Shown piece by piece: positions 8,703 to 59,137 of a DNA stretch of 64,000 nucleotides. The stretch's first letter is position 1. Each line of letters begins with the position of its first letter. The DNA is from a virus (lineage: Duplodnaviria; Caudoviricetes). Position numbers and translations under genes: made by a program. The notes beneath the pieces are model-generated. The model was not told the DNA's origin, did not search any database, and worked only from the letters and a program-made list of their open reading frames with translations. The DNA lies in the IMG/VR virus record IMGVR_UViG_3300020202_000071, positions 1,754 to 65,753 of that record; one strand, written 5' to 3'.

Positions 8703-8706
8703 TCGG

Positions 8707-11700: not shown

Positions 11701-14700
11701 CCCGCCACTCTGCGGGTGACGATTCGCGAAACTACCTATCGCGATCGTCCTGGCTTCACGGTCAGCTGGAGAGACGGCGCGTTTCCGCAATCGGTCTTCG
11801 TCCCATCCCGGATTCAAGCCGACGCCATCAAGTCTGTCGTGCAGCAGGGCGGCGGTGTCGACGCGATTGATCGGATTGTCCGCGATGGCCCGCCGATCAC
11901 GACGGACACGCTCCCCACGGGCGAACGGCAGCCGCGCCTCCCGGAAGCCGGCGAGGTGCGCGATCGCGAAGTGGTGACGCCGCCCGTGGCCGCGGTGCCC
12001 GAGCCTGAATTTCGTTTACGCGGTCAGTCCGCGCGCGCGCCCGCCACGCAAGGTCGCCTGTTCGGCATGTCAACCGCCGCGACGTCCACGCCCATGGGTG
12101 GCGACGCCCTGCGACAAGTCAACGACTACACGTTCGAGCAACCGCCATCGCACATTACTAATCGGTTTCGCGGTCGCGCGCCGATCTCCGAACATCAGGT
12201 CGTCAACACCTTACGGCGCATCTTCGCCGTCTCGCGCGAGAGCGGCGATGTGCTGGATCGCTTGGCGGGATCGGAGCAGGTGCCACTCCCCACACGCCGC
12301 GGCCGCAGCACCATGATTCGTCGTGGTCGGGCCCTAGGCGTCTACAACACCAAGACCGGCAGCATTCGACTCAAGCGGGACATAGATCTCTCCACGTTTG
12401 TGCACGAGCTCGGCCATCACATCGACTTCGCCTTGTTCGAACAGCATGGTCGTCCGATGGGCCTGTTCAAAGACGAATTGCTCCGCATGGGCGAAGGCAC
12501 CACGCCGCCCTCGATGCGCGGCGTCAAGAAGCATGAGTCCTATCAACTCGCGGAAGGCGTCGCCGAGTTCTTCCGGATCTGGTTTCCTGATCCGGCGCGC
12601 GCCAAGACGGTCGCGCCGAAGTTCTCGGCGGCCTTAGACGAGGTCATGCAGCGCGCTGAGGGGTTTGGCCAGCAGCTGGAAGACGCGCAATCCCTGGTGC
12701 AGCGGTATCTGTCGCAGGACTTGGCCACGCGCGGCGTCGCCCGCATCAGCATTCATCCGCGCTCGCTCGCGTCGGCCCCGATCGCGGCAGCCCGGCGCAC
12801 CGTCCGCAACGTGCGCGAGGCGTATCGGGAGGGCGGATCACTCAGGGCCACGGCGAAACGCGTCGGGGCGTCTGTCCTCGATTCCCTCAACGTGCCGAAG
12901 TGGATGCGCGACCCGCACCAGCAGTGGCAGGCATTCCGGAAACAGTGGATTGATGATCTCGACGCGATCCAGCGGGCCGTCTTCGACATGGCGGGCGATG
13001 ACCTGAGCGCGGCCGATCACGCGTACGTGCTGGCGCGCATCGCGCGCGGCACCGCTGGCAAGGCCCAAGGGTTTCTCGAGCACGGCGTCCGGGATCTCGA
13101 TGGGCAGTTTCTCGGGCCCTCACTCCGCGCCGCATTGGCACCCGTCATGGACCGGCTGACGCGGGACGAAGGAGCGCCATACACGCGGCCCGATTTGGCG
13201 TCGTATCTCGTGGCGCTCCGCGCGCGCGAGCTGCACACCCGCACGACCAACCCACGCGATCCAGGCATGAAGCTCGCGGAGGCCGAGCTGATCATTCGTG
13301 CCACGGAAGGTGATGCGCGCTTCGAGCAATTTGCGGCCGCGCGCGATGCCGTATATGCCTACCAACGGTCGCTCTTGGCGTACGCCAGGCAGGCCGGGGC
13401 GTTCAGCGAGGCGCAGATTACGGCGATCCAGAAGGCTGGCGAGTTCTATGTGCCGCTCCAGCGAGTGCTGGAAGAGGTCGAAGAGGCGGGCGGCGGAAGC
13501 GCCAAGCGCATTGCGGATCGCGTGAGCCCCATCAAGAGCCAGAAGGGCTCTGGTCGCGACATCATCGATCCCTTTGAATCGATCGTGAAGAACACGGCGA
13601 CCATCGTCGACATGGTCGAAAAGAACCGCGCGATGATCGCGCTGACGTCACTCGCCGACGAGACGACCGGATCGGCCCTATGGCTGGAACGGGTGCCACC
13701 CGATCAACTGCCCACGACGTTCAGACTTGACCAGCTCCAAGAGGTTGTCGTCGACAAGCTTGTGGCCGCCGGCACGGACGTTCCCGAGGGCATCGACTGG
13801 TCGGACATGGTGACGGTATTTACACCCACGCTGTGGGGCGATCCGAAGCACCGGATCGTCACGGTCATCAAGAATGGCAAGCGGCAGTTCTATCAAGTGC
13901 AGGACGAAGCGCTCTACCAGGCGATCACCGCAATCGGCCCGGCCGCCGCAACGGAGTTGATGCACTGGATGGCCAAGCCGACGGCGGTCCTCCGGGCGGG
14001 TGCGACGTTGACGCCTGGCTTCATCATTCGCAACCTGCTGCGAGACACCGTGGGCGCGATGCTGCAGTCGCGGCACGGATTTATCCCGGTCATCGACACG
14101 CTCGGCGGGTGGGTGTCCATGTTCCGGCGCGACGCGGACTGGCAGTTATATCAAGCCGCCGGCGTGCAACAAGCGGCACTCCTGGGACAGGACCGCGATC
14201 GCGTGGCGTCCGTGCTCGATGAACTCGGCGACAAAGGCTGGCGGCGCCGGATCAAAACCGCGCTGCATCCGCTCGATGCGCTGCGACGGGTCTCCGAACA
14301 GATCGAAAACGCCACGCGCGTCGGCGAGTTCAAGTTGGCGCTTCGCAATCCCGGCGCGGACCGACGGGTCGGGGTTCTCGGGATCGCGCAACGCATGGCC
14401 GATACCGCGCGCGGCCGGAATACGCCGATCACCGAGCGGCACCAACTCGCGCGCGCGACCCTCGCAGCGCGTGACGTGACCGTGGACTTTTCGCGCGGGG
14501 GGACGAGCGCGAAAGAGGTCTCGCAGTTCAAAGCCTTCTTCAACGCCCGCACGCAGGGCTTTGCACGAATTGCCGAGACCGTTCACCGCGACCCGACTGG
14601 CGCGGCGATCACGGTGGCGGGACTCTCAGCGCTGTCCCTCGCACTGTGGATGTTGAACAAGGACGATGAGGACTACCAGACCCTCACGCATCGCGAGCGC

Positions 14701-35111: not shown

Positions 35112-35333
35112 GTGATCACCGTCCCGGTCTTCCCCTCGTCGCGGCATGGCGTCATGGCGATGCAACCGATGCAGATCCCCGCGTGCTGGTCCGTCTGGAT
35201 CTGTCGTGGCATTCGGTATTCCTGGACGGCGAGTCGGCAGTTGCAGGCGAGGGATGAAGACGGACGCACGTGGCGCTTTGACGAAACGCGTCAGGCGTGG
35301 ATGCGGGTGATCGATCGGGAGAAGGTCGCGTGA
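35112..35333 (+). CDS. Hypothetical protein
   Basis: Coupled to the methyltransferase start (GTGA). Confidence 0.45.
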   Translation: MITVPVFPSSRHGVMAMQPMQIPACWSVWICRGIRYSWTASRQLQARDEDGRTWRFDETRQAWMRVIDREKVA

Positions 35334-36748
35334 TCTTGCACGGCGATTGCCTCACCGTGCTCCGGACGCTCGACGTCGACTCGATCGACGCCTGCGTCAC
35401 CGATCCGCCCTACGGGATCGGGTTCATGTCGAAATCATGGGACACGTTCTCGCCAGCGGCGGCGGCCGCGCGGATCATGGAGAACGACGAGATCGATTCG
35501 GACAATCCGAACCTCCGCGGGCGAACGCGCGGCGTCGCCTCTTCACCGTCAGCCATCGAATACGACCGCTCGGTCGAAGGTCAACGTGGGTTTCAGGCGT
35601 TCTGTGAGTCGTGGGGCCGTGAAGTCTTTCGAGTCCTAAAACCGGGAGCGTATCTGCTGGTCTGCGGTGCGCCGCGCAGCTATCACCGGATGGCCTGCGG
35701 CATCGAAGATGCCGGCTTCGAGGTGCGCGACTGCTTCGCGTGGTTGTTTGGGCAAGGCTATCCGAAAAGCGTGGACATCGCCCGGGCGATCGACATGGCG
35801 CTCTGTACCGAGGATGGCCGTCATTGCATGCGGCGAGTGCCGCCGTCGTTGAAGTTCCAGCCAGGAGATCACGTCTGCGCTGAGACGGAACTCGGGAAGC
35901 AATGGGCGGGGTGGGGCTCTGGCCTGAAACCGTCGAACGAGCCAATTTTAGTGGCGCGCAAGCCGCTTGTCGGCACGCTCGCCGAAAACGTCCTGAAGTT
36001 TGGCGCGGGGGCGCTGAACATCGCAGCATGCCGTCTTGACAGCACTGTTGACGACTGGTCACGCGAAAAGTTGGCGCGTCACAAGGCTGCGCGAAACGAA
36101 CCATCAGGCACGCGGCGCTATATCGAGAAGGGCTCAACCGATTTCGGCATGCTGCCGGGACCGCGCGGTGGTGACGAATTGGGCCGATGGCCTGCGAATG
36201 TGCTGCTGGATCAGATTGCGGCCGACTTGCTCGACGCCCAGAGTGGCGAGCTCACGAGCGGTGCCAACCCGAGGCGCCGGTCATCGGACAAGTTCCGCGA
36301 CATCTTCGGCGCGTTTCATGGGCAGGCGGAATGCACGCCGGCTCGTGGCGCTGATGCTGGCGGTGCTTCGCGCTTCTACTACGTCGCGAAACCGTCACGC
36401 GAAGAACGCGATCTCGGCTGCCACGACCTGATCGCGCGGCCACGGGACGAGAGCCGCAAAGAGGGGAATCCCGGCGGCGACAACCCGCGCAACCGAGGAC
36501 TTCAGCCACGCGGCAACTTCCATCCCACCGTCAAGCCGGTGGAACTCATGCGCTGGTTGGTGCGACTCGTGACGCCGCCGGGCGGGCTGGTGCTCGATCC
36601 GTTCACCGGCAGCGGGACGACGGGCATGGCGTGCGTCTATGAGCAGCGCCGGTTCATTGGCATCGAACGCGAGGCGGATTACATCGCGATCGCGGAGCGC
36701 CGCATTCGATCCGTCGCGCCGTTGTTCGTAGATGAGGCGTCTGCATGA
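35330..36748 (+). CDS. N6-adenine/N4-cytosine DNA methyltransferase (beta class)
   Basis: VTDPPYG, HPTVKP and VLDPFTGSGTTG motifs. Confidence 0.93.
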   Translation: MILHGDCLTVLRTLDVDSIDACVTDPPYGIGFMSKSWDTFSPAAAAARIMENDEIDSDNPNLRGRTRGVASSPSAIEYDRSVEGQRGFQAFCESWGREVFRVLKPGAYLLVCGAPRSYHRMACGIEDAGFEVRDCFAWLFGQGYPKSVDIARAIDMALCTEDGRHCMRRVPPSLKFQPGDHVCAETELGKQWAGWGSGLKPSNEPILVARKPLVGTLAENVLKFGAGALNIAACRLDSTVDDWSREKLARHKAARNEPSGTRRYIEKGSTDFGMLPGPRGGDELGRWPANVLLDQIAADLLDAQSGELTSGANPRRRSSDKFRDIFGAFHGQAECTPARGADAGGASRFYYVAKPSREERDLGCHDLIARPRDESRKEGNPGGDNPRNRGLQPRGNFHPTVKPVELMRWLVRLVTPPGGLVLDPFTGSGTTGMACVYEQRRFIGIEREADYIAIAERRIRSVAPLFVDEASA

Positions 36749-37041: not shown

Positions 37042-37250
37042 TGGAAGCGATGCTGATCGCTGGCGTCCTCGCGTTGATCGTCGTGGCGGCGGCCGCGGGC
37101 TTCGAAGTCGGCCGCTGGTATGGCCAAGCCTTCGCCTATCGCTTGCATCGGCATGACGTGAATCTCGATCGCTGGTATGCGGAGGAACCCAAGATCCGCA
37201 CACTTGCCCTGGCGCACCAGGACCAACAGCAGGAGGTAACCGGTGGGTAA
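37041..37250 (+). CDS. Small membrane protein
   Basis: One TM helix; TGATG coupling. Confidence 0.5.
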   Translation: MEAMLIAGVLALIVVAAAAGFEVGRWYGQAFAYRLHRHDVNLDRWYAEEPKIRTLALAHQDQQQEVTGG

Positions 37251-38190
37251 GGACACGGCCATCGAGTGGGCCACGCACACCTTCAATCCATGGATCGGCT
37301 GCACGAAGATCGCGCCGGAGTGTGCACGATGCTACGCGCACGATGAGACGTTCGTCCGCGTGCAGCGATCGCGCGGCCGCGAACTCTGGGGACCGACGGC
37401 GGATCGTCACGTCACGTCCGCCGGGAACTGGCGCGCGGTCCTCGCGTGGAACCGCATGGCCCACGCGGAAGGCACACGCGGGCGTGTGTTCTGCGCGTCA
37501 CTCGCCGACGTCGCCGAGGATCGCCCGGATCTCGTCGAACCCCGCGCGCGTCTGTGCGATCTGATTCGACGAACCGACGCGCTGGACTGGCTCCTGCTCA
37601 CCAAACGGCTCGAAGATCTCGTCCGGTTGTTCCCGGCCGATGTGCTCCAACGCGCATGGGTTGGCACGACGGCTGGCACCGTCGATCGGATGCGCGAGGA
37701 AGCCCCGCGGCTCGCAGAAATCGACTGCCGTGTCCGCTTCATCAGCGTCGAACCGATGCTCGAGGATGTCGCCGCCGATCTGCGCGACGCGCTTGTCGCG
37801 ATCGGCGATCACGTACCTCGTTGGGTTGTAGCGGGTGGCGAGTCTGCGAAGCCCGGTGACAAGCCGGCCCGTCCGATGCATCCCGATTGGACGCGCGGAG
37901 TCCGCAACGTCTGCGTGTCCCTCGGCGTGCCGTTCCTGTTCAAACAGTGGGGCGACTGGCAGGACGGTAGCGTGATCGAGCCAGGGAAACCACCAGTCGG
38001 AGAAATCGTGCTGCTGGACGGCCGGCATGGCAAGACGCCGGAGGACCTCGGTTTCACCGGTATTGCGCGAGCAATGGAGTGGGGCCGGTTGCGCCCAACG
38101 ATGATGGCACGCGTCGGCAAGAAAGCCGCCGGCCGAATGCTCGACGGTCGCGAGTGGAACGAATTCCCCACGGTTGAGGCGACCGTATGA
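37243..38190 (+). CDS. DUF5131 (phage Gp37/Gp68 family) protein
   Basis: TAIEWATHTFNPWIGCTKIAPECARCYA, LLLTKR, RFISVEP, GGES, FLFKQWG and GRMLDGREW motifs. Confidence 0.92.
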   Translation: MGKDTAIEWATHTFNPWIGCTKIAPECARCYAHDETFVRVQRSRGRELWGPTADRHVTSAGNWRAVLAWNRMAHAEGTRGRVFCASLADVAEDRPDLVEPRARLCDLIRRTDALDWLLLTKRLEDLVRLFPADVLQRAWVGTTAGTVDRMREEAPRLAEIDCRVRFISVEPMLEDVAADLRDALVAIGDHVPRWVVAGGESAKPGDKPARPMHPDWTRGVRNVCVSLGVPFLFKQWGDWQDGSVIEPGKPPVGEIVLLDGRHGKTPEDLGFTGIARAMEWGRLRPTMMARVGKKAAGRMLDGREWNEFPTVEATV

Positions 38191-38432
38191 AGGAGCTTTG
38201 CCTATGCGGTTGCCTCGGGCTGGCCGATCCAATTCTCATCACGCTCGACAACTGGTGCCCGAACTGTGGCCATGGCCACGTCGATCTTCCTGGCGATGAC
38301 AGTACGTGTCGGTGCATCAGTTGTGGCGAGCCGCTACCGCGTTCCGTCGCACTGAAGACGCCGCCGACGCGCGTTCAGATTCGTCGCAAGGCCGGCGCGC
38401 GGCACAAAAAATCTGTCGAGGCGACGGTATGA
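38187..38432 (+). CDS. Cys-rich (Zn-ribbon) hypothetical protein
   Basis: CPNC and CISC motifs; flanked by a repeated gene junction. Confidence 0.5.
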   Translation: MKELCLCGCLGLADPILITLDNWCPNCGHGHVDLPGDDSTCRCISCGEPLPRSVALKTPPTRVQIRRKAGARHKKSVEATV

Positions 38433-38626
38433 GCGACGCACTGAAATTGCTGGAGCCGCCCGCGTTCATTGGCATCTCGCAACTCCGCGTGACCAACGCC
38501 GCGCAGTTGCACGAGTTGACGCGCCCCGAGATCGTCATGGTGCAGAGCCAGCCCGTCGCCGTGCTCGTGCCTTATGACCTCTTTATGGCCGCGCAAGCAC
38601 TCATCCGGAGGGTGAGTCAGTCATGA
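38429..38626 (+). CDS. Phd/YefM-like small protein
   Basis: IGISQLR...PEIVM...QPVAVLVPYD pattern. Confidence 0.55.
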   Translation: MSDALKLLEPPAFIGISQLRVTNAAQLHELTRPEIVMVQSQPVAVLVPYDLFMAAQALIRRVSQS

Positions 38627-38666
38627 CCCGGATCGCGTTCACCTACGTTGAGGAAGGAACTGAAGA

Positions 38667-39209
38667 GTGAAGACGCTGAAGCTCGCCGAGAACCTGAACC
38701 TCCCCGCGGACGAAGCCGTCACCCAGAAGTTCGGCACCGCCTACGTAACGGAACTCCGCGAGCGGATCATCGCCAATAGCGTTGAGGATGAGCGCGGCTG
38801 CTGGCTCTGGCAGAAGAGCAAGAAGAACGGCTACGGGCAAACCAGCGTTCATCGCATGTCGACGTACACGCATCACCTCGCGTACGAACTGTTCATCGGG
38901 CCCATTCCACCCGGGCGCTTTGTGTGCCATCGCTGCGACGTCAGCGCGTGCAACAACCCGGCGCATCTCTTCCTGGGAACGCAGGCTGAGAACCTCGCCG
39001 ACATGCGCGCGAAGGGCCGCGGCTCGAAGCCGCCAGTCGCTCAGGGCGAGACGCATCACGCTACGCCGCTCACCGACAAGCAGGTCGTGGAAATCAGACG
39101 GCTTGCGGCGGAAGGCAAAAAGCAACGGGACATCGCGGCGCAGTTCGGGTGCTGCCAGGCAACGGTGTCGTCGATCGTTCGAGGTCAGTATCGGAGGAGC
39201 GCGCGATGA
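38667..39209 (+). CDS. HNH homing endonuclease with C-terminal HTH; N-terminus duplicates the downstream ATPase
   Basis: CWLW...GYG...HHLAY...VCHRCDVSACNNPAHLFLGTQAENLADM. Confidence 0.92.
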   Translation: MKTLKLAENLNLPADEAVTQKFGTAYVTELRERIIANSVEDERGCWLWQKSKKNGYGQTSVHRMSTYTHHLAYELFIGPIPPGRFVCHRCDVSACNNPAHLFLGTQAENLADMRAKGRGSKPPVAQGETHHATPLTDKQVVEIRRLAAEGKKQRDIAAQFGCCQATVSSIVRGQYRRSAR

Positions 39210-40957
39210 AGAAGATGCTGGAGCTCGCACCGGGCCTGAATCTGCCGGCTGACGAGGCGATCGCGCAGAAGTTCGGATTCATCGGCCGATCTGGGTCAGG
39301 TAAGAGCTATGCGGCGATGAAGCTCGCCGAGCTCTTTCTGTCAATCGGCGCGCAGGTTATCGCGTTGGACTGGGTGGGACTTTGGTGGTCGCTGCGCCTG
39401 GCGGCCAATGGCAAGGCACCCGGCTTCGAGCACGTCTACATCTTTGGCGGCGAGCACGCCGACGTGCCACTCGAGCCGACGTCAGGCGCGCTCATGGCGG
39501 ACCTCGTCGTCGATAAGCACATCTCCGTCGTGCTCGACGTGATGCACTTCCGCAAAGCCGAGCGCACGCGGTTCGCGACCGCATTCGCGGAGCAGTTCTT
39601 TCACCGGAAGAAGACGGCGCGCACGGCGTGCCACCTCTTCATCGAAGAGGCGCAGGCGTATCTCCCGCAAATGGTCCGCGGCGAGGAAGCGCGCATGGTC
39701 GGCGTGTTCGAGGACATCGGGAAGGTCGGGCGCAATTACGGCATCGGCAATTCGCTGATCTCGCAGCGGCCGCAGGCCATCAACAAGGACGTGCTGAACC
39801 AGATCGAGGTCCTGCTGGCGTTTCAGACCAACGGCCCGCAGGAGCGCAAGGCGATCGCAGGCTGGACCGCTGAGAACACGACCGCCGGCGCCGCGATGAT
39901 GCAGGCGCTGCCGACGCTGCCCGTCGGCCACGCGCTCGTCTGGTCGCCGCAGTGGCTCCGCATCGCCGAGCGCGTGCACATCCTGCCGCGGCAGACCTAC
40001 AACGCCAGCGCGACGCCGACCGGCAAGGCGAAGCAGATCGCCCCGCAGACCCTCGCGCCGGCGGAACTCGAATCCCTGGGCGATGCCATCAAGGCGACGG
40101 TCGAACGGTCGAAGGCCGATGACCCGCGCGAGCTCCGGAAGCAGATCGCCGAGTTGAAGAAGCAGCTCGCGACGCCCGCCACACCGACCGCGGCGCCGGC
40201 GGCCCCGAAGGTGATCGAAAAGCCCGTCGTCACCGACAAGCAGATCGCGGCGGTGCAGAAGCTGGTCGATCAGTTGGACGCCCTGGCGTCGAAGGCCGAT
40301 GACCTCAGCGATCGCTGTGTCTCGGCCGCCGCGGCGTTGCGCGCGGACTTGGCGAAGGCGATTCAGCAACCGCCCCCGAAGCCGCAGCCGAGCACCGCAG
40401 GCCGGCTGGTGGAGCCGACGATCACGCGGATGCACGCGACGCCACTGCAGCCGATCGTGAAGCGCGCGGCACCGAGCGATGGGAATGGCGTGGCGCTCGG
40501 GAAGGCCGAACGCGCCATCCTGACGGTCCTCGCGCAGCATCCTGACGGCTGCGAGAAAGGCAAACTGACGTTGCTCGCGGGCTATCGCTACTCTGGTGGC
40601 TTCCGCAACAGCCTCGGTGCCCTGCGCACCGCCGGCTACATCGTGGGCAGCAATGAGAGCACGATGCGCATCACCGATGCTGGTGTCGCCGCGCTCGGCG
40701 AGTTCGACCCGCTGCCCACCGGTGACGCGCTGCGCGATTACTGGTTGTCGCATCCCTCTTTTGGAAAAGCCGAGCGGGCGATTCTGGCCGCACTGTTCGA
40801 GCATCCCGACGGACTGGATGCGCCGGCGTTGTGTCAGCGCACGGGCTACGAATACAGCGGCGGCTTTCGAAACTCACTCGGCGCCCTCCGCACCGCCGGC
40901 CTGCTCGTTGGCGCAAACACTGGCGTCATGAAGGCCAGTGACGTGTTGCTCGAGTAG
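39206..40957 (+). CDS. HerA/FtsK-superfamily (DUF87-like) ATPase with tandem C-terminal winged-helix repeats
   Basis: Walker A GRSGSGKS, Walker B LFIEEAQ, GRNYGI and SQRP motifs; repeat GKAERAIL...YSGGFRNSLGALRTAG occurs twice. Confidence 0.85.
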   Translation: MKKMLELAPGLNLPADEAIAQKFGFIGRSGSGKSYAAMKLAELFLSIGAQVIALDWVGLWWSLRLAANGKAPGFEHVYIFGGEHADVPLEPTSGALMADLVVDKHISVVLDVMHFRKAERTRFATAFAEQFFHRKKTARTACHLFIEEAQAYLPQMVRGEEARMVGVFEDIGKVGRNYGIGNSLISQRPQAINKDVLNQIEVLLAFQTNGPQERKAIAGWTAENTTAGAAMMQALPTLPVGHALVWSPQWLRIAERVHILPRQTYNASATPTGKAKQIAPQTLAPAELESLGDAIKATVERSKADDPRELRKQIAELKKQLATPATPTAAPAAPKVIEKPVVTDKQIAAVQKLVDQLDALASKADDLSDRCVSAAAALRADLAKAIQQPPPKPQPSTAGRLVEPTITRMHATPLQPIVKRAAPSDGNGVALGKAERAILTVLAQHPDGCEKGKLTLLAGYRYSGGFRNSLGALRTAGYIVGSNESTMRITDAGVAALGEFDPLPTGDALRDYWLSHPSFGKAERAILAALFEHPDGLDAPALCQRTGYEYSGGFRNSLGALRTAGLLVGANTGVMKASDVLLE

Positions 40958-47638: not shown

Positions 47639-50033
47639 TCGGTGCGTCCATCGAATTGCCGACCGTGCGCATCATTCCCGCGACCCGCACGCCGCTGACG
47701 GGCGTCTACGTGGAGTATCACGGCGAACCGCAGCGCCAGGCACGCATTGAACGGGCGGTGGTGCCGGAGGACTTCATCATTCGCCTGCCGGATGACTGGC
47801 TATGCCTCGACGACCTGCAGGCGATTGCCGACTACGTCGCGATCACGGAAGGGCGGCCGATCGCGGCGATGACGATGCGACACGAGTTGCGCCGGAACGT
47901 GCTAATCCTTTACGAGCAGGACAAGCGCGCGTGCGGGCGCAGCCTGTCGGGATGTGTGAGCGGTGAGTTGCCGCTGCTGTCCGACGCGACCTACGCGCCG
48001 CGCGTCATCACCGTGCGATTGGAGCAGCGATCGTGAAGCTCGAAAATGAAGCGCTGATCGCCAGCGGCGCGCTTCTGACCTGCGACGGGTGCGGCAGCAA
48101 CGACGAGGTCATCCTGAAACGCCGATCGGACCGCGAGGGCTGGTTCTGCACGCTCTGCCGGCGTGCGGACATTCGGCGCCAGTACGCTCAGGTAGAGCAG
48201 ACGTTGCTCGGCGCGGCGGTCGGCATCCTGCGGAGGCTCTTTCGATGCTGACGACACGTCGAGGATTCTTTGGGCTCATCGCCACGCTCGTTTCGTGGCC
48301 CCTGACCAAGCTCCGAGCCCACGCGAACGCTGTAAACGGCCTCCGCACAAGCGAAGAGACGGGCGAAAGGCTTATTGACGGCACAACCGTCCTTGGCCGT
48401 GTGCACCGCGCGAGCGATGGCACCCCACTGCTCATCATCGACACGTTCGCGCCCACGGGGGCGGTCTACAGTGGCTCGTTAATCGTCGGCGGTGACGTCG
48501 TCAGAACGGTCAACAACCTGACCGAGTCGATGGCGGCCGCGCGCGAGGACGACGGCGACGACCTCGTGGACCGTGCGCAGTTCATTGCCGGCTTGCGGTT
48601 TGTTGCCTGGCGCACGCTGCATCACGTGTTGCCGCTCGAGGAGCGTCGCGCGATCGCGCGTCAGGCGAGCACAGCGCCGCGGCAGATGCCGTGGGTGACG
48701 GCGCGGGGCGAGTCATGAGCGCGCTCGCCACACTGCACTTCGAAGATTGGCCGGATTCGAGCACGATGATCGTTGTGCGGCCGGCGCCGTCCGGCGTGAC
48801 TTACGCGAATCAGACAGACGGCATCATGTGCCAGCACCGCGACGTCGAGGGATACGTCGAATCGGTGCTGCCGCTGCCGCGTGATGTTAAAACCTGCTGG
48901 TGCGGGCCTGATGCGGGTTGCCCGGAGACACTAATTCACCACCTGCGCTGCTACGGCTACGAACTGGACGGCGCCGATCGCGGTGAAGAGGGTTGGGTCA
49001 AGACGCGCTGCGGCGCGATCGTCTTGACGCCGAACTGCGATTGACGCCATGAAGCGCCGCACCTTCCTCGAACTGTTGACCGCCGCGGTCACGAGTGCGT
49101 TCGCCGGGCCGCTCCTGCCGTCGCTGACGTTGACGCCAGGGATCAAGTCTCGCGGACTCGATGAGCCGATGCCGGAGCCGACCGGCGGCGAGTACCTCTA
49201 CATGAGCGGCAGCGACGCGTACCGCGTGTATTTCACCGACAACACGTCGGTCGATGTGCCAGGCATCGAGATTGCGCGGGCACGCCGGCACGGGGACGCC
49301 AGTCAAGTCCGCGCAATGCTGCATCGCCTCTGGCGTGAGCAGCGGCAGGCGAGGTTGGCGTTGTGACCGCGCGGTGCTCCGTCTGCGGCCACGTGGCGCG
49401 TCTGCCAATCTTGCAAGTCTCCGCGCTCGGGGCGTGCATCCTCTGCCCTGATCAGCAGATCGCGATCGAAGAGTGCTTGCAACGTCGTCCGCCGGGTCGT
49501 CCGTGGTGGGCGTTCTGGCGTCGCCGTGTGCCGATGGAGGTGTACCTCGATGCACTGTTCGAGGCATTGCCGTGGCGGTTCACAGAAGTCTCATGACCGT
49601 CCGCGAGTGGTTCCGCGAGCTGCGGCGATCGCAGCCCCCGTCCGTCGAACTCCGCGAGTTCTGCGAGTCCCTTGTACGGGACGATGTCGATCGCCACGCG
49701 CGTGAAGCGCTCTTCCTCCAGGTGCTCATCGCCGCTGGATTGATGGACGATCCGCCTGGCGCGTTGACGTGGCACCGACTGCTCGCCGGCAGCAGCATCA
49801 TGACCGGCGCCTTGCAGCACGGCCGCGATGGCGAACCGCGCCTCGTGCTGCCGCCGCGGCCGCGCCTAGTGCCCGATGCGGACTACCCGCTCGTCGGGGT
49901 GTGGGTTACGGACCCTGATGAGCCGACGCTGCGTGACTTCGCCTCGGCAGCCGACTACGGCGTGCGCGATGCCTACGTGGCCTACTTGCACTTTCGTCCA
50001 GGAGTTTCGGGAGATCCGACCCCGGATTCGTGA
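47635..50033 (+). CDS. Cluster of small coupled hypothetical genes between terS-like and terL (47635-48036, 48033-48251, 48245-48718, 48715-49044, 49049-49366, 49363-49596, 49593-50033)
   Basis: Chain of ATGA/GTGA overlaps; two genes have twin-arginine-like leaders. Confidence 0.55.
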
Positions 50034-52597
50034 GCGGCAAGCGCGCAAAGCACGCGCGTCGGCTCGCCGCCCTCCGCAAAGGCTTCCTCTGGGGCTATCT
50101 CCACCCCTCTGGCTCGTGCCTGCACGAGCCGCCCTGTACGCCCTCTCGTGAACGCTGTCAGCCCCAACCCAAACAGGCGATCGCCCACGCGTCGACCGCA
50201 GAGGTCCTGTTCTACGGAGGCGCCGTCGGTGGAGGAAAAAGCGAATTCGGCCTGATCGAGGCGATCACGATCTGCCTCGAACACAAGAACGTCAAGGTCG
50301 CGTTCTTCCGCCGCAAGCTGCGCGAGCTTGAGCAGGAAATCATCGGGCGCTTCCTGCTGCTGGTGCCCGATTACATCGCCACCTACAACGCCAGTACGCA
50401 CGTCGCGAAGTTCTGGCAGGGCTCCGAGCTCTGGTTCTGCCACTGCCAGCACGAGAAGGACGTCTACACCTACCAGTCGGCGCAGTGGGTGGCGCTCTTC
50501 ATCGACGAGAGCACGCACTTCACCGAGTTCATCGTCCGGTATCTGATCACGCGCGTCCGCTCGGCACGTATCGGGATGCGGAAGCGCATCCGCCTGATGT
50601 CCAACCCGGGCGGCGTCGGTCACGGCTTTCACAAACGCTGGTTTATCCGTCCGGTGCCCGACGAGCTCGGCACGCGTCCCGCGCCGGCGCCGTTTGCGAT
50701 CTGGCGTCCGCTGCCGCTGCCGAACGACCCGACCCCACCGGAGCATGTGCCGACGCGCCAGTTCATCCCGGCCTGGTTCCACGACAACGTGGCGCTCGCG
50801 AGCGCGGACCCCGCCTATCTCGCCAAGGTCTGGGCGCTCGGGGGTGACAAGGCGAAGCAGCTCGCCGAGGGTGATTGGGACGCCAACGACTCGATGATTG
50901 TCGGCTCGACGTGGCGTGAGAAGCGGCTCGTGCAAGCGAGCGATCACGCGCTCCTGGCCCTCGGGCTGAAGGTCGGCCAGATCATCCCCTGGCACATCAT
51001 CCCGAACCCGCAGTGGAAGCCACCGAAGGGGGCGACGATCTGGGGGAGCGTCGATTACGGCTACGGCGCCCCGTGGGCGTTCCACCTACACGCGGGCTTA
51101 CCGGGCGGCCATATCCGCACGTTCTTCGAGTTCTACATGCCGAAGAAGCGTGACGTCGAGCAGGCGCGCATGATCGCCAAAGTGCTGCGCGAGAACCACT
51201 GGCAACCCGAGTGGATCGTGATGGATCCGTCGATGTGGAACTCACGCGCCGAACAGGGGCTCGCGAAGTCGATCGCCGAAGTCTACGCCGACGAGATCCA
51301 GTCGATCTGCCAGCTGCGCAAGGGTGCCGCCGGTCGATCAGCCCGCGTGTCGCGCCCGCAACGGTGGCTTGCCGCGTTGCAGCCGGCCGCCGATGGTCTG
51401 CCGAATTGGACCGTCACGACTGCCTGTCCGGATCTCATTCGCACCGTACCCGACGTGCCCTGGGATCCGGAGGACCCGGAGGTCGAGGACGATTCGAGCG
51501 AGAACCACTGCATCGCCGCCGGCACCCTCATCGACACGAGTGAAGGTCCGAAGCCGATCGAGCAGATCATCGCCGGCGATCTCGTCCTGACGCGCAAAGG
51601 CTACCGCCCGGTGCTACGGGCCTGGCTCACGAATCCTGATGCCGAAGTCCTTGAGGTGACATGTTCGGACGGTCGCGCGTTGCGAGCGACGGCGAATCAT
51701 CGCGTCTTTGAAAAGAATCAAGGATTCATTGAATTTGGAGAATTAGCCGAAGGCTTCATACTGCATAATCACTCAGAGATTTCGCGATGGTTGAAGGTCC
51801 GATCGTTATTTCAGACACCGCGCAGGAATGGCGTGAAGTGGTCTATTACAAGTGCGGTCGCTACTTTGCGCGCCGCGGCTACGGTCGGTTGCACCGGCGC
51901 GTCTGGCGCGATGTCTACGGGCGCATCCCCTACGGCTGTCACATCCACCACAAGGACAACAACCCGGCGAACAACCATCCGTCGAATCTCGAACTCCTCC
52001 ATCGCAAGCAGCATTTGTCGATGCACAGCCGCAATCCGACGGAGCGGCAGCGCGCCGCGCGCCGCGAAAACCTGCGATACGCCTCGGAGATCCGCATGGC
52101 AAGACCGAGCATCATCGTGGCGTGCTCGCATTGCGGCGAGCCTGCAGCAGTGGCTGAAGGGCAACTACGCGTTCGCAACTACTGCTCACGGCAGTGCCGG
52201 TGGAACGCCTTCGATAAACGCCAACGCGATGCGCAGCCCGCGCGTGAGGTCATCTGCGCCGGCTGTGGGAAAGCTTTCCAGACCAAACGGCGCGGCAAAC
52301 GCTTCTGCGGGGACGTCGCGTGTTATTACCGTGCGGCCAAGCGGGCGAACAGCGGTGTACGACCTGACGGTCGCTGACGCGCACGAGTTCTTCGCCAACG
52401 GCATCCTCGTTCACAACTGCTACGAAGGGGTCGGGCGCTTCTTTGAGGCGCGGCCGTTCGTGCCGGCGCCGGCCCCGTTCGATCCGTATGAGGGTCTCGA
52501 CCCGATTTCGCGTGCGCATCACGAGGCGCTCGAGAAGAAACATCGCAGCCGGGTCGGCGGGGCGATGGGGATCGGCAACCTGGCGAATCAGGGGTGA
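50030..52597 (+). CDS. terL: Terminase large subunit with intein
   Basis: YGGAVGGGKS Walker A, FIDES Walker B, SNPGGVGH, LAEGDWD and VDYGY nuclease motifs. Confidence 0.95.
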   Translation: MSGKRAKHARRLAALRKGFLWGYLHPSGSCLHEPPCTPSRERCQPQPKQAIAHASTAEVLFYGGAVGGGKSEFGLIEAITICLEHKNVKVAFFRRKLRELEQEIIGRFLLLVPDYIATYNASTHVAKFWQGSELWFCHCQHEKDVYTYQSAQWVALFIDESTHFTEFIVRYLITRVRSARIGMRKRIRLMSNPGGVGHGFHKRWFIRPVPDELGTRPAPAPFAIWRPLPLPNDPTPPEHVPTRQFIPAWFHDNVALASADPAYLAKVWALGGDKAKQLAEGDWDANDSMIVGSTWREKRLVQASDHALLALGLKVGQIIPWHIIPNPQWKPPKGATIWGSVDYGYGAPWAFHLHAGLPGGHIRTFFEFYMPKKRDVEQARMIAKVLRENHWQPEWIVMDPSMWNSRAEQGLAKSIAEVYADEIQSICQLRKGAAGRSARVSRPQRWLAALQPAADGLPNWTVTTACPDLIRTVPDVPWDPEDPEVEDDSSENHCIAAGTLIDTSEGPKPIEQIIAGDLVLTRKGYRPVLRAWLTNPDAEVLEVTCSDGRALRATANHRVFEKNQGFIEFGELAEGFILHNHSEISRWLKVRSLFQTPRRNGVKWSITSAVATLRAAATVGCTGASGAMSTGASPTAVTSTTRTTTRRTTIRRISNSSIASSICRCTAAIRRSGSAPRAAKTCDTPRRSAWQDRASSWRARIAASLQQWLKGNYAFATTAHGSAGGTPSINANAMRSPRVRSSAPAVGKLSRPNGAANASAGTSRVITVRPSGRTAVYDLTVADAHEFFANGILVHNCYEGVGRFFEARPFVPAPAPFDPYEGLDPISRAHHEALEKKHRSRVGGAMGIGNLANQG
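51509..52417 (+). mobile_element. Intein (303 aa) in the terminase nuclease domain
   Basis: Block A CIAAGTLI, block B ATANHRV, blocks F/G VYDLTVADAHEFFANGILVHN, +1 Cys. Confidence 0.95.
51787..52377 (+). CDS. HNH endonuclease with Zn fingers, nested out of frame in the intein
   Basis: LHRRVW...G.IP.GCHIHHKDNNPANNHPSNLELL...H...H; CSHC, YCSRQC, CAGC and FCGDVAC. Confidence 0.9.
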   Translation: MVEGPIVISDTAQEWREVVYYKCGRYFARRGYGRLHRRVWRDVYGRIPYGCHIHHKDNNPANNHPSNLELLHRKQHLSMHSRNPTERQRAARRENLRYASEIRMARPSIIVACSHCGEPAAVAEGQLRVRNYCSRQCRWNAFDKRQRDAQPAREVICAGCGKAFQTKRRGKRFCGDVACYYRAAKRANSGVRPDGR

Positions 52598-53428: not shown

Positions 53429-53734
53429 ATGTTCACGCGCCTGCGCCTCGCGTTCCGTGCCCTGTTCGGGATCGCCGATCCCGCACCGGTGCCGTGTGCG
53501 CGCTGCGTGGAACTCGCCCAGGAACGCGACTACTGGAAAGCGCGTGAAGAGCGCACCGCCGATCGACTGCTCGAGCGCCAAGGTATTGCGCCCGTCGCGC
53601 AAACGCCGGCGCCGCCGCCCATCAATCCGATGGCGCTCGCCATGCACGCCATGACCATCACCGAGATCGACAGCACGAAAACCAAGTCACCGCAGCCGGG
53701 CCGGGATGCGATGACCCGTGGAGCCGCGCACTGA
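53429..53734 (+). CDS. Hypothetical protein
   Basis: CARC plus coiled coil; precedes the portal gene. Confidence 0.55.
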   Translation: MFTRLRLAFRALFGIADPAPVPCARCVELAQERDYWKAREERTADRLLERQGIAPVAQTPAPPPINPMALAMHAMTITEIDSTKTKSPQPGRDAMTRGAAH

Positions 53735-56138
53735 CCCCGCTGCGGCACAGGCTGCCGCTCCCGGCCAGGCGACGCCCGAGCGCAAGATCGATTACGTCGG
53801 CCAGGGCAAAGCGCTGATCGAGAAGTGCATCGCCGAAGCGGCGTCGAATCACGCGCGCCTGCTGCGCGACCGCGCCGACATCCTCAATCAGAAATTCGAC
53901 CGCGGCGGCCGCGCCAATCAGTGGTGCGTCTGGGACCAAGGCACGGGACGCTACGTCGAACGTGGCACCGATCCCGAGCAAGGCGGCCTGCCGGAATATA
54001 TTCCGCGCCCCGTCACCAATGTCTTCAACGTCGTGATCGATGGGATCTGCGCGATCCTCGATCAGTCCGAACCCGCGCAAGTCTTCGGCCCGAACACGGA
54101 CGCGGACAGCGACAAAGCGGCCGCGGAAGTCGCGGCCGATGCCGTGCCGGTGCTGCGGGAGGAATGCGGATACGACTCCGAAGGCCACCGCCACGAGTTG
54201 AACCGCTTGTCGACGCTCATCGACAAGTGCCTCTACCTCCTCTACTACGACAACGACCCCAAGCACGGCATGGGCGAGGTCGAGTTGTTCTCGTGCGGCC
54301 AGTGCGGCGAGGTGGTTGAGCCGATGGAAGTCGAGGACGCCGGCGGGAAGTGCCCCCATTGCGAGTACGCGGAGACGGAGCACTTCGAGCTCGTCACCGA
54401 CCCGACGACGGCCCTGCCGATCACGATCCCGATGCCAAAGGGCCGGATTCGTGGCGAGATCATCCCGAGCTACGAGTTCACGCTGCCGTCCTCATGTCGG
54501 CGGCCGAACGCGAAAGCCGCGCCGTGGATCCTGACGCACTCGCGGATGGCGCCGCAGGACGTCGCGCGCATGTGGCCCGCGGCCGCCGCGATCGCCGACG
54601 ACAAGTCGAAGTGGGCCTCGGGCTCTCTGACGCGGGCCTACGCCGATCAAATGCGGGCGCTCTCGAGCCCCGCGACCGGTGAGACCGGGAGTCGCACGGG
54701 ATCGCAGGAAGTGGATGGGCCCGTCGTGTATCGCCTGATGCACGACCCGATCGAGGATCGCGACTTTTACTTCCCGAAGGGTTTTTTCGGCGTGCTGATC
54801 GGTGGCGAGCTCGTGGAGAAAGGGCCGCTGCCGTTCGAGGACGGCAACGGCACGCCGGTCAAGCACGGCATCGTGCGCACGTATGTGGACGGCACGGGCT
54901 CGCAGTTCGGCCACCCGCCGGGCGATGACTTGGTGCCGCTGCAGCAGTCGCGCAATCTCGTCGAGTCGATGATCCAGTTGATCATCATGCACGACGCGGC
55001 GCCGACGAAGTACCTGCCGGAAACCGTCACGCTGGTCGATCAGCCGACCGGCGTCCCGGGCGAATGGGTGCGCTACCGCTCGCTGGATGGGCAGAAGCCC
55101 ACCGAGAGCCGCGGCATGAATCCGCCCGAGTCGCTGTTCAACTACCTCGATCGCATCGACGCAAAGTTCCAAGAGGTCAGCCGGCTCAATTCCGTGCTCT
55201 CCGGGCAACGGCCGTCTGGCGATCCGACGCTCGGCGAAGTCCAGATCCTCGAAGAGCGCGGCATGGCCGCGTTCAGAGCCCCGCTCGACTGCCTGATCCA
55301 GTTCGAGAAGGATCTGTCGTTCCTGCTGTTGACGATTGCGCGGCAGTGCGCGTGGTCGCCGCGCTTCCGCCGCATCCGCGGCGAGGACAAGCAGTGGGAG
55401 ATCAAGCAATTCGCGAGCGCGGACCTCTCGGGCGAGATCGACATCACGGTCGCGCGCGCGTCGGCATGGCCGAAATCGCCGCTGATGCAGCAGCTCCGCA
55501 TCAAGGAAGCGCTGTCCGGTGGCGTGCTGCCGCCGCCGATGCAAGACCCCGAGTTGCAGGGCCAGTTGCTCGTCGACATGGACCTGGCGCACCTGAAGAA
55601 GTCGTGGGACGTCGATCGCCGGCAGATCGCGCGCGAGCTCGATGTGTGGCGCCACGCGCACACGCCCGACGAGATCATGGCCGCCGCGCCGGATCCACAC
55701 ATCATCGAGATCTCCCTGCATCTCTATCTGAAAAAGAACTTCCTGAAAACCGAGGAAGCGGAAGAGATCCGGCTGGCGAATCCGCCGGTCTATCAGGCGA
55801 TGGTGCAGCAGGTGCTCGGGCTCGAGCAGCACATGCAGATGAAGGCGATGCAGGCGGCCGCGATCCAAGCGGGCCCGCAAACGCCGGCCGCACCCGGTGG
55901 CGAGGGCGCGCTCGACGCCGCGCTGGAAGCCGGCGCTGTCGCACCCGCCGAGGAACCGCAGCCCGAAGCGTTGGCCGCGGCAATGGAATCAGGCGCGTTG
56001 ATGCCCGCGGGCGCGGGCGAGGCGATGGCCGCCGCGGCGGCGGCTGGCCCGTCGATGGACGACCTGTTGGAAGCGAAGTTGTTACTCCCGGTGACGCCGG
56101 ACGAGGGCGCCGCGCATGCAGGCGTGCCCCCGCTGTAA
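53718..56138 (+). CDS. Portal protein with Zn-ribbon insertion
   Basis: 806 aa between terL and scaffold. VTNVF, D.D..AAEVA and DDLVPLQ..RN motifs; CGQC/CPHC insert. Confidence 0.8.
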   Translation: MEPRTDPAAAQAAAPGQATPERKIDYVGQGKALIEKCIAEAASNHARLLRDRADILNQKFDRGGRANQWCVWDQGTGRYVERGTDPEQGGLPEYIPRPVTNVFNVVIDGICAILDQSEPAQVFGPNTDADSDKAAAEVAADAVPVLREECGYDSEGHRHELNRLSTLIDKCLYLLYYDNDPKHGMGEVELFSCGQCGEVVEPMEVEDAGGKCPHCEYAETEHFELVTDPTTALPITIPMPKGRIRGEIIPSYEFTLPSSCRRPNAKAAPWILTHSRMAPQDVARMWPAAAAIADDKSKWASGSLTRAYADQMRALSSPATGETGSRTGSQEVDGPVVYRLMHDPIEDRDFYFPKGFFGVLIGGELVEKGPLPFEDGNGTPVKHGIVRTYVDGTGSQFGHPPGDDLVPLQQSRNLVESMIQLIIMHDAAPTKYLPETVTLVDQPTGVPGEWVRYRSLDGQKPTESRGMNPPESLFNYLDRIDAKFQEVSRLNSVLSGQRPSGDPTLGEVQILEERGMAAFRAPLDCLIQFEKDLSFLLLTIARQCAWSPRFRRIRGEDKQWEIKQFASADLSGEIDITVARASAWPKSPLMQQLRIKEALSGGVLPPPMQDPELQGQLLVDMDLAHLKKSWDVDRRQIARELDVWRHAHTPDEIMAAAPDPHIIEISLHLYLKKNFLKTEEAEEIRLANPPVYQAMVQQVLGLEQHMQMKAMQAAAIQAGPQTPAAPGGEGALDAALEAGAVAPAEEPQPEALAAAMESGALMPAGAGEAMAAAAAAGPSMDDLLEAKLLLPVTPDEGAAHAGVPPL

Positions 56139-57782: not shown

Positions 57783-57790
57783 GAGTGACC

Positions 57791-59137
57791 ATGAAGCGAT
57801 CCCTGTTTCATGCGTGCTCGGACCTCGCCTTCGACGGTCTCCACGACCGTCAGTGGATGCCCGGGTCCGACACCACGCAGTGGGACCCGTTGTTCAAAGA
57901 CGACTACGGGCCCGCGATCGTCAGCCAGGTCAACGAAGAGAACCTGATGACGAAGTGGATGGAAACCGAAATCGCCGACGACTCGTGGGTCGGGCGACAG
58001 AAGGTGGTCCCCATCAAGATCGGCCGCAACCGGTCGATCGGCTCGATCCCGTCGCGGGGCCGCCTGCCGCAGGCCGGCCGCAGCGTGTTCGAGGACTTCC
58101 AGATTCCGATGAAGAACACGTACGGCCGCGTGGGCTTCGAGCGGAACGTCATTGCGCAGTCGCGCAACAAGAAGGGGTCGTGGCAGCAGGTGATCCCCGC
58201 CGAAATGGAGGGGCTGACCGAAGCCATGGCCTTCCACCGCAACCGCGTGATCTGGGGCTACGGCTCCGGCATTCTCGCGCTGGTCAACGGCGCGCAGAGC
58301 GCCGACACGACGATCGAAGTCGACAGCCCGGGCAACGTGTCCGGATCCTCGGGAGGCGCGCGCTACCTCGATGGCGACAGCACGTCGGGCATGTACGTCG
58401 CGTTCCTGGATTCAAGCAACAACATCCAGGCGACGGCGACGATCAACAGCGTCGCCGCGGCGCTGACCTCCGTCACGGTGGACTCGGCGATCACGGTCGA
58501 CGACAACGCGAAGATCGTCATCGCGCAGTCGGCGACGCAGACGTCGCACAATCAGGAGCCCGAGGGTCTGCTCGCGGGCATCGACGACGGCACGTACGTC
58601 GCGACCTACCACGGCCTGAGCCGCACCACCTACCCGATCCTCAACTCGCACGTGACGACCGGCGTCGGCGCGCTCTCGCTGGATGCGATTCAGCAGATGT
58701 GCGACGCGGTCCACATCAAGACCGGCAAGACGTTCGACATGTTCGCGTGCGAGCACGCGGTGCGTCGCGCGTATCTGGTCCTGCTCGAGACGGATCGGCG
58801 CTACACCGGGGCGGATCTCGCGCGCCCGGATGGCGGCACCGCCGCGGCGAAGAAGCCGGGCGGCCGCACCATCACCTACGGCGACATTCCGATGTTCGTC
58901 GATCGTGATGCGCCCTACCGGATGCTGTTCGGCGTCAACAAGGCCTCGTGGACGCGCTACGTCGAAAACGAGGGTGAGTGGGCCGCGCAGGAGGGCTCGG
59001 TGCTCAAGTGGGTCCAGGACTACGACGAGTACACCGCCTTCTACTTCATCCAGGACAACTTCCATTGCCAGCGGCCGAACGTGAACGCGCGCATGGAAGG
59101 CATCGATGTCACGCAGCTGGCGGTGAAGGCGGCCTAA
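57791..59137 (+). CDS. Major capsid protein
   Basis: LFKDDYGPAI..Q, VVPIKIGRN, GYGSG.LA, EPEGL and YGDIPMFVD motifs; strong codon bias; AGGAG RBS. Confidence 0.85.
   Translation: MKRSLFHACSDLAFDGLHDRQWMPGSDTTQWDPLFKDDYGPAIVSQVNEENLMTKWMETEIADDSWVGRQKVVPIKIGRNRSIGSIPSRGRLPQAGRSVFEDFQIPMKNTYGRVGFERNVIAQSRNKKGSWQQVIPAEMEGLTEAMAFHRNRVIWGYGSGILALVNGAQSADTTIEVDSPGNVSGSSGGARYLDGDSTSGMYVAFLDSSNNIQATATINSVAAALTSVTVDSAITVDDNAKIVIAQSATQTSHNQEPEGLLAGIDDGTYVATYHGLSRTTYPILNSHVTTGVGALSLDAIQQMCDAVHIKTGKTFDMFACEHAVRRAYLVLLETDRRYTGADLARPDGGTAAAKKPGGRTITYGDIPMFVDRDAPYRMLFGVNKASWTRYVENEGEWAAQEGSVLKWVQDYDEYTAFYFIQDNFHCQRPNVNARMEGIDVTQLAVKAA

Follow-up and report, generated by a model that had tools for sequence, protein, structure and literature searches.

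How can a nuclease gene settle inside the coding sequence of another gene without any splicing and still leave that gene able to encode a complete protein? The question is raised by a locus of a tailed phage (Duplodnaviria; Caudoviricetes) located in a stretch of 64,000 nucleotides (nt), hereinafter the window, that corresponds to positions 1,754 to 65,753 of the IMG/VR virus record IMGVR_UViG_3300020202_000071, which is 65,753 nt long and rated complete. Within this locus, an open reading frame (ORF) for an HNH nuclease of 180 amino acids (aa) (38667-39209, plus strand), which starts with GTG and begins MKTLKLAENLNLPADEAVTQKFG, is followed by an ORF for a HerA-like ATPase of 583 aa (39206-40957, plus strand), which from the ATG at 39206 begins MKKMLELAPGLNLPADEAIAQKFG and leads directly into the Walker A motif, FIGRSGSGKS. 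Residues 1-23 of the nuclease repeat residues 1-24 of the ATPase. We propose, with a probability of roughly 0.6, that the HNH gene is a free-standing homing endonuclease gene of the I-HmuI type, combining an HNH_3 domain with a helix-turn-helix, that lies inside the 5' end of the ATPase gene. As can be read from the sequence, the in-frame fusion would have the nuclease translated from the former ribosome-binding site of the ATPase and the GTG, and the whole ATPase would be made by coupled translation from a second start at the nuclease stop codon.

The N-terminus of the ATPase is encoded twice

The first copy of the shared segment (38667-38735, plus strand; hereinafter copy 1) consists of the GTG and 22 ATPase-type N-terminal codons in frame with the HNH gene, and the second (39206-39277, plus strand; copy 2) consists of the ATG and 23 codons that form the working N-terminus of the ATPase. 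Identical residues occupy 17 of the 23 aligned positions, and the codon-by-codon comparison of the two copies revealed different codons at 8 of the 16 identical residues other than the start. When the HNH protein was compared with the whole window using tblastn, the second match was to 39212-39277 (72.7% over 22 aa, E=7e-6), and local alignments of the repeat scored 19 and 20 standard deviations above shuffled sequence (z-scores). The repeat is not due to chance. These results confirm two claims of a first-pass annotation made from the sequence alone, namely, that the nuclease carries the N-terminus of the adjacent ATPase which itself possesses a second copy, and that the two copies differ at many synonymous positions. 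At the nucleotide level, the copies are 73% identical (last 60 nt), and the longest exact run common to both is 11 nt.

Origin of the shared peptide

A search for homologues of the ATPase yielded 1376 sequences, 119 of which were used for the motif counts, and the counts for the nuclease are based on 120 HNH relatives. The peptide motif (consensus ..L.LA..L.LPADEAVTQKYG) directly precedes Walker A in 113 of the 119 ATPase homologues; among 30 aligned homologues, P14 is invariant and L5, L11, L13, A18, Q21 and K22 are nearly so. A hidden Markov model (HMM) of these 113 N-termini matched only 4 of the 120 HNH relatives, always at the protein start: the window protein (P0121, E=5.7e-16), P0122 (7.4e-10), P0136 (3.2e-7) and P0131 (3.2e-7). 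Both the PHROG and the alignment matches of the window protein to the HNH family start only at about residue 24-30. Furthermore, in the AlphaFold model of the ATPase, the peptide forms a beta-hairpin, a short helix and a strand that leads into the P-loop, with a per-residue confidence (pLDDT) of 92-96, whereas in the model of the nuclease it is an unstructured leader (pLDDT 47-67), with confidence of at least 90 from residue 21 on. Because the motif counts, the HMM matches, the starting points of the family matches and the AlphaFold models all agree, we conclude that the 23-residue leader belongs to the ATPase rather than to the HNH family, and that the nuclease evidently took it from the ATPase gene, apparently more than once. 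The junctions between the leader and the nuclease, of which three or four can be told apart, differ among the four leader-bearing proteins (after QKFG, TQK, ADAIT and RGSG, the last one inside Walker A), which argues for repeated captures near one site. A protein search with HNH residues 1-40 returned the query alone (2 candidates) and is uninformative on the rarity of the leader.

In P0086, a 530-aa ATPase homologue encoded in a JGI contig of 8,243 nt, the annotated N-terminus, which ends in RRSTG, is unrelated and joins the ATPase family exactly at FIGRSGSGKS. It may represent a further insertion at the same point.

The nuclease gene and its predicted translation

Downstream of copy 1, the body of the nuclease (38736-39209, plus strand) comprises the linker TAYVTE, the HNH_3 domain, a C-terminal helix-turn-helix and the stop codon. 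The catalytic and zinc-binding motif, CHRCD...CNNPAHL...N, is encoded at 38865-38996 (plus strand; residues 67-110), and the same residues match Pfam HNH_3 (PF13392) with 44.4 bits, the cut-off being 24.8; among the PHROG families, HNH families match with E-values down to 6.9e-31. A DNA-binding helix-turn-helix module is predicted at 39069-39182 (plus strand; residues 135-172). Helix-turn-helix families score below the Pfam cut-offs in this region (the best at 21.1, with a cut-off of 27), the phrog_517 helix-turn-helix family matches the C-terminal region with E=1.2e-9, and the structure model contains three helices at residues 137-171 (pLDDT 89-98). In an alignment with 39 relatives, H88, C90, D91, C95, P98, H100 and N109 are invariant and C87 is nearly so, and the top Foldseek match of the model is I-HmuI (1u3e), although this match is weak (E=0.02, probability 0.95, TM-score 0.31). 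Given the invariant motif and the identity of the top structural match, the nuclease looks active.

A Shine-Dalgarno-like sequence, GAGGAAGGA, lies at 38650-38658 (plus strand), 8 nt 5' of the GTG, and presumably is the original ribosome-binding site of the ATPase that is now used by the nuclease. There is no further in-frame ATG, GTG or TTG in the HNH gene ahead of the conserved core, and the nuclease therefore depends on the leader GTG and the upstream GAGGAAGGA. At the other end of the gene, the ATPase ATG (39206-39208) overlaps the HNH stop codon TGA (39207-39209) in an ATGA, and a GGAGGAG within the HNH 3' end (39193-39199, plus strand), 6 nt 5' of the ATPase ATG, would function as a strong Shine-Dalgarno sequence for the ATPase.

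No match to any Rfam family, those of intron RNAs included, was obtained at E<=1 across 37500-40500, and Pfam searches detected no Hint or intein families in either the HNH protein or the ATPase. With neither an intron RNA family nor an intein domain, the arrangement is therefore splicing-free, in agreement with the first-pass annotation.

The ATPase gene

The ATPase is a member of the HerA/DUF87-like group with two C-terminal winged-helix-like repeats; its Walker A motif, GRSGSGKS, occupies residues 27-34 (39284-39307, plus strand), and G27, R28, G30, G32 and K33 are invariant among 30 homologues. The Pfam DUF87 score, 23.2 bits, is exactly at the cut-off, and solved HerA chains match the protein at E=3.3e-9 to 1e-4 over residues 131-259. 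The ATPase can be aligned with uninterrupted homologues over residues 1-583, and from residue 1 it covers 99-100% of their length. Compared with these uninterrupted homologues, the window encodes one complete ATPase ORF, and there is no sign of a host gene split into two polypeptides. The idea that the nuclease was inserted into the ATPase gene, took over its start and left a restored gene behind, which had been put forward on inspection of the sequence, is thus supported by the ATPase-type leader, the lack of another HNH start and the completeness of ATPase residues 1-583.

ATPase loci with and without the nuclease

To place this arrangement among related genomes, we collected ATPase loci from three kinds of contigs: viral ones, in which 7 of 10 candidates were true homologues, metagenome contigs (14 of 106 pattern matches) and genome contigs (47). 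An HNH gene is located directly upstream of the ATPase gene in only 2 of the 62 loci with readable upstream DNA, the window and L188. Thus, the nuclease is sporadic, being present or absent among otherwise homologous loci. L188 is a 4,587-nt contig of a metagenome-assembled genome of Gemmatimonadetes with a gene for a 164-aa HNH protein (617-1111) that is 47% identical to the HNH protein of the window and shares ATGA overlaps both with the upstream gene, at its start, and with the ATPase gene, at its end; the L188 ATPase is only 37% identical to that of the window. In two other loci, L184 and L191, HNH relatives are found more than 2 kb upstream of the ATPase. Another HNH_3 gene, encoding a 172-aa protein with a zinc-ribbon-like N-terminus, starts at the stop codon of the ATPase homologue in L032 (6625-7143, minus strand). 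Different phages thus have nucleases at one or the other end of the ATPase gene, and the DNA that precedes this gene is a mosaic in all relatives examined.

The scan for duplications was restricted to loci in which 300 nt or more of the upstream DNA could be read, which admitted 61 loci, the window among them, and left out 8; it compared 1.8 kb of upstream sequence with the N-terminus of the respective ATPase. The z-scores were 20.1 for the window, 8.2 for L007, 5.2 for L183 and at most 3.7 for all others. The similarity upstream of the L183 ATPase was attributed to chance, judging from the ORFs of this locus, leaving the N-terminal duplication in only 2 of the 61 loci, the window and L007.

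In L007, a viral contig, the duplication spans 2447-3060. A 22-codon copy 1 (2447-2512) ending in AVTQ occupies the ancestral position, as about 45 nt separate it from a small divergent gene homologous to the neighbour of the ATPase start in L072 (E=4e-8). It is followed by about 480 nt that contain a minus-strand gene for a 146-aa protein (2524-2964) with 16 homologues, which belongs to no nuclease family, and then, from 2995, by the ATPase with its own copy 2. L007 thus has the same junction as the window with a different, non-nuclease cargo. Since here the N-terminus is duplicated around a gene that does not encode a nuclease, the duplication is not tied to the HNH cassette. By the terms of the first-pass annotation, relatives that lack the HNH gene and yet retain both copies would speak against its reading, and L007, one such relative, does so in part by keeping both around a different cargo gene. 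We also considered the plus-strand ORF that continues copy 1 in L007 and rejected it as a gene because it matches no Pfam family and the minus-strand ORF that it overlaps has 16 homologues; the G+C content at third codon positions (GC3) is 0.70 in both frames and does not discriminate between the two ORFs. The L007 ATPase gene shifts frame near 3552.

Viral contigs were also scanned for related HNH genes, yielding 1 locus for P0122, 52 for P0136, 26 for P0123 and none for P0131. Among 53 such loci tested, none encodes a leader copied from the neighbouring gene, barring the doubtful case of L145 and L146, in which the leader of an unrelated HNH protein (KLIERFMKKVRKTD) resembles a stretch about 115 nt past its stop codon (about 3995-4600). 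The z-scores of this similarity are 6-7 and the matched stretch itself contains a stop codon, so it may reflect a decayed duplication or chance. The degenerate DNA pattern for LPADEA..QK identified 2 viral stretches and 106 metagenome stretches, 14 of which are ATPase genes; no two-copy locus was found among these 14, but the pattern is too narrow for counting absences.

Comparison of the two copies with other alleles

Which of the two copies do relatives without the nuclease resemble, a question that the first-pass annotation had raised? Over the last 20 residues, copy 1 is nearer to the homologues in 109 of 127 comparisons and copy 2 in 6, with 12 ties; this set omits rows that lack the motif, have fewer than 20 N-terminal residues or have fewer than 90 aligned residues in the body of the protein. 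At the nucleotide level, the mean identity of copy 1 to nine relatives is 0.74, which is the level observed among the relatives themselves, as against 0.67 for copy 2. The lower similarity continues over the 90 nt after copy 2, which include Walker A (0.72 compared with 0.80), and the remainder of the gene is at parity. With the consensus of eight relatives (leave-one-out) as the reference, the ATPase gene of the window has 42 differences in its first 150 sites and 56 in the 450 that follow (Fisher p=0.022).

The first-pass annotation had also inferred that copy 2 is a recoded, cleavage-resistant replacement. The analysis weakens this idea rather than bearing it out: residues that distinguish copy 2 (LELAP.., AIAQ) are found in ordinary alleles, e.g., P0061, P0090, P0081 and P0019, codon choice in Walker A is equally variable among HNH-less relatives, the excess divergence is modest, and L007 has the duplication without the nuclease. 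Copy 2 looks like a natural allele, and we rejected the recoding of Walker A as evidence given that HNH-less relatives vary as much. The lower GC3 bias of the ATPase 5' region, noted by eye, survives in a weak form. Copy 1 has a GC3 of 0.96, copy 2 one of 0.83 and the stretch 39251-39370 one of 0.76, with values of 0.76-0.84 over the first ~60 ATPase codons compared with a mean of 0.865 for the gene (standard deviation 0.08, 25-codon windows); this dip amounts to about one standard deviation, and the 3' end of the gene, at 0.64-0.80, falls further, for which reason GC3 was rejected as a sign of foreign origin.

Possible origin of the arrangement and alternative explanations

The likeliest origin of the arrangement would be endonuclease-triggered repair with one-sided homology that imported the nuclease together with the 5' end of the donor ATPase gene. 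The steps of this scenario are derived from the anatomy of the locus and from what is described of free-standing HNH and GIY-YIG endonucleases in the accessible parts of two sources (PMC2988022, PMC10448857). In a mixed infection, nucleases of this clade would cut HNH-less alleles near the DNA that encodes the N-terminus and Walker A, and repair from an HNH-bearing genome would copy the nuclease with its flanks. In the founding event, homology would have existed on the ATPase side only, as suggested by the mosaic upstream region in every relative, and the recipient end with codons 1 to about 23 would therefore have been joined illegitimately, in frame, to the nuclease gene, while the complete ATPase 5' end of the donor arrived alongside the nuclease. 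Under this scenario, copy 1 would be a scar of the recipient that later became useful as a translation start, copy 2 would be the own 5' end of the donor allele, and L007 would carry a scar of the same type, the upstream neighbour of the donor ATPase in that case not being a nuclease. With 73% identity and no exact run longer than 11 nt, the copies plausibly are too unlike to recombine and delete the nuclease. Copy 2 and the Walker A region, through their additional divergence, may be protected from self-cleavage, and the same divergence may favour the pairing of broken ends with copy 1.

Several observations weigh against the proposed endonuclease insertion. The leader of the L188 nuclease, MTKLRMEF, is not significantly similar to the ATPase N-terminus and is too short to be assigned to it, and the similar leader of P0123 gives E=3.3. 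An ATPase gene is present in none of the 79 other viral loci with HNH relatives, and this HNH clade is therefore not confined to the ATPase gene; the existence of a second ATPase N-terminus downstream of P0122, P0131 and P0136 is assumed. The excess divergence at the 5' end is weak, the ratio for the window (2.25) being the highest among nine alleles but closely followed by that for L110 (1.96). Moreover, both copies have N in LNLP and F in QKFG, each of which is a rare state, a hint that the copies share an ancestor within one lineage instead of stemming from two distant parents. The nearest relative is only about 90% identical at the nucleotide level, even in the conserved core, so that the breakpoints and the parental alleles cannot be named and neither copy can be called native.

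A stronger version of the endonuclease insertion holds that the HNH lineage is specialised for the 5' end of the ATPase gene, where it would capture the ribosome-binding site, the start and the first codons and carry a diverged replacement that resists self-cleavage, blocks excision and steers broken ends to copy 1, with the duplications, including that in L007, being cleavage-site scars. We consider this extension tentative, with the odds against it.

A related possibility, a strict form of what the first-pass annotation proposed, is that the HNH body and a recoded N-terminus constitute a self-contained cassette that inserts by homing exactly between codon 23/24 and Walker A, the 5' end having been selected for cleavage resistance. 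Along with the first 150 nt of the ATPase gene, in which copy 2 and Walker A are the most diverged among the 9 alleles, the base composition would fit such a cassette: GC3 of the HNH body (0.79) resembles that of the first ~60 ATPase codons and is below that of the ATPase core (0.92), as if the two travelled together. A similar leader is also present in P0122, an HNH protein that is 63% identical to that of the window. However, the four leader-bearing nucleases have different junctions, the L007 duplication lacks any HNH gene, the same copy 2 was found at no second locus, the variant residues of copy 2 also occur in ordinary alleles, and the Walker A codons vary to the same extent in HNH-less relatives. 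Such a cassette is rather unlikely.

It could also be argued that the locus is an ordinary mosaic joint or a local duplication that is independent of nuclease activity, with the HNH gene a passenger that happened to reside upstream of the donor ATPase. L007, with the same type of duplication around non-nuclease cargo, and the region upstream of the ATPase, which is different in every relative examined, favour this explanation. Against it stand the clustering of the junctions within roughly 25 codons in five independent cases, the occurrence of the N-terminus of this one gene in 4 of the 120 HNH relatives, the HNH_3 genes that flank the ATPase gene on one side in some phages and on the other side in others, and the rarity of any duplication (2 of the 61 loci). 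We therefore regard it as improbable.

Another explanation invokes a functional link, such that the HNH protein is a domesticated partner of the ATPase and the shared peptide acts in docking or assembly, recruiting the nuclease to the same partner or to the ATPase ring. Copy 1 has kept intact every residue that is conserved in the family (L, L, L, P, A, Q, K), and the HNH and ATPase genes are adjacent in both the window and L188 despite the low similarity of the two ATPases. Nevertheless, 60 of the 62 ATPase loci have no adjacent HNH gene, the proline that is invariant in the family is lost in P0122, most of the peptide is absent from L188 and P0123, and the leader that is part of the core sheet in the ATPase is predicted to be unstructured in the nuclease, all of which makes a docking role very doubtful.

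An assembly chimera can be practically dismissed because Logan contigs from a second soil run of another study (X2), which cover 38561-38849 and 39132-39586, span both junctions with 0 differences, showing that the arrangement is not an assembly artefact, and there are also Logan/ENA contigs, the longest of 63,901 nt, from which the same protein is known. The HNH-less joint was not seen in the contigs of either run, although contigs cannot reveal rare variants. In favour of a chimera are the metagenomic origin and one other locus, the metagenome contig L108, which contains the ATPase 5' end on both strands as a mirror image and is probably a palindromic misassembly.

Relationship to known systems

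The closest known parallel to the proposed insertion appears to be provided by the gene hybrids that mobile endonuclease ORFs (mORFs) form in fungal mitochondria, namely, atp6 of Allomyces macrogynus and atp6, atp9, cox2 and nad3 of Glomus sp. (PMC3630166). As described in the available part of that source, an mORF brings a foreign C-terminal portion of the gene, and the native one is left as a duplicate (PMC3630166, citing Paquin et al. 1994); the duplicates are 64-81% identical in DNA and near-identical in protein. In both systems, with neither an intron nor an intein involved, an endonuclease ORF resides in a protein-coding gene between two copies of a gene end that are far apart in DNA (64-81% for mORFs, 73% here) and close in protein, and some mORFs are in phase with the host gene, as is the HNH gene of the window (PMC3630166). 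Unlike the mORF hybrids, in which the 3' end is duplicated, the present case involves the 5' end, and the native end would not be an idle remnant but would provide the endonuclease with its ribosome-binding site, start codon and leader; furthermore, the nuclease is of the HNH_3 family rather than LAGLIDADG or GIY-YIG, and the genome is that of a tailed phage. The native copy in the mORF hybrids is near-identical to that of a close relative, whereas here there is no close relative for comparison (PMC3630166).

In Tremella, an N-terminal duplication via intron mobility has been described, in which, as may be the case here, a duplicated 5' gene end results when homing-type gene conversion carries flanking sequence along; the vehicle there is a group I intron, whereas no intron RNA family is detectable at the phage locus (PMC8393795, in the part available). 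The same source applies the term 'core creep' to the in-frame fusion of an intron-encoded endonuclease ORF to the upstream exon. The resemblance is that the endonuclease would use the translation signals of the host gene by read-on from the host start, and the difference is that no intron or splicing is involved here, the host gene apparently being saved by a second start rather than by RNA splicing (PMC8393795).

Among phages, the genes-in-pieces of T4-like viruses, with mobE in nrdA of Aeh1, mobA in gene 39/60 of T4 and seg in gene 43, similarly feature a free-standing HNH or GIY-YIG gene in a functionally critical region of a conserved phage gene (PMC2988022, in the accessible portion). However, the products of those genes are pairs of polypeptides that reassemble, and the genes contain no duplication, whereas in the window the whole ATPase would be produced by means of the duplicated 5' end. 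The nuclease also resembles the T4 mob and seg genes and the nucleases of ICP1 in being sporadic and located beside conserved essential genes at mosaic boundaries, where co-conversion of the flanks is expected, but those genes are intergenic and have their own starts, and no borrowed N-terminus of a neighbour is described in the available parts of the sources (PMC2988022, PMC10448857).

In a literature search that left most subscription journals and supplements outside its scope, we found no report from a phage of an endonuclease fused to the N-terminus of its neighbour with a duplicated 5' end. By comparison with the above systems, what seems to be new here is the 5' end, the phage, the HNH nuclease and the capture of the start; endonuclease-driven duplication of gene ends is already known. 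Phage free-standing homing endonucleases have been described as intergenic or gene-splitting, and the locus analysed here would represent a third splicing-free route into a coding sequence. A duplicated N-terminus joined near Walker A is a sequence marker that may indicate where an uncharacterised nuclease clade cleaves and may also show how phage mosaic boundaries form. If the HNH lineage is indeed specialised for this gene, the scars would show endonuclease breaks creating both gene-end duplications and mosaic joints. For annotators, the locus is a warning that, when two adjacent phage genes match over a short N-terminal stretch, the match can be the scar of a recombination event and need not be a domain that they have in common.

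Genomic context

The HNH/ATPase locus is situated within the replication and DNA-metabolism block of the window, which also includes a methyltransferase gene (35297-36748), a DUF5131 gene (37243-38190) and small ORFs. The phage encodes its own large terminase (50030-52597), portal (53718-56138) and major head protein (57785-59137), and we therefore rejected the possibility that the ATPase is the terminase. Directly upstream of the HNH gene lies a 65-aa ORF (38429-38626) that matches neither Pfam nor PHROG families and lacks homologues in all the fetched loci, and hence the ancestral position of copy 1 cannot be checked by synteny in the window.

In addition to the HNH gene, the phage carries a second selfish element that is also located in an essential gene. 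The 855-aa large terminase holds an intein (about 51509-52417), recognised by the Hint_2 (residues 494-529) and Intein_splicing (residues 528-796) families, both above the Pfam cut-offs. Elsewhere in the window, 8683-15594 (plus strand) is occupied by a single ORF of 2,303 aa with a coding-like GC3 of 0.75.

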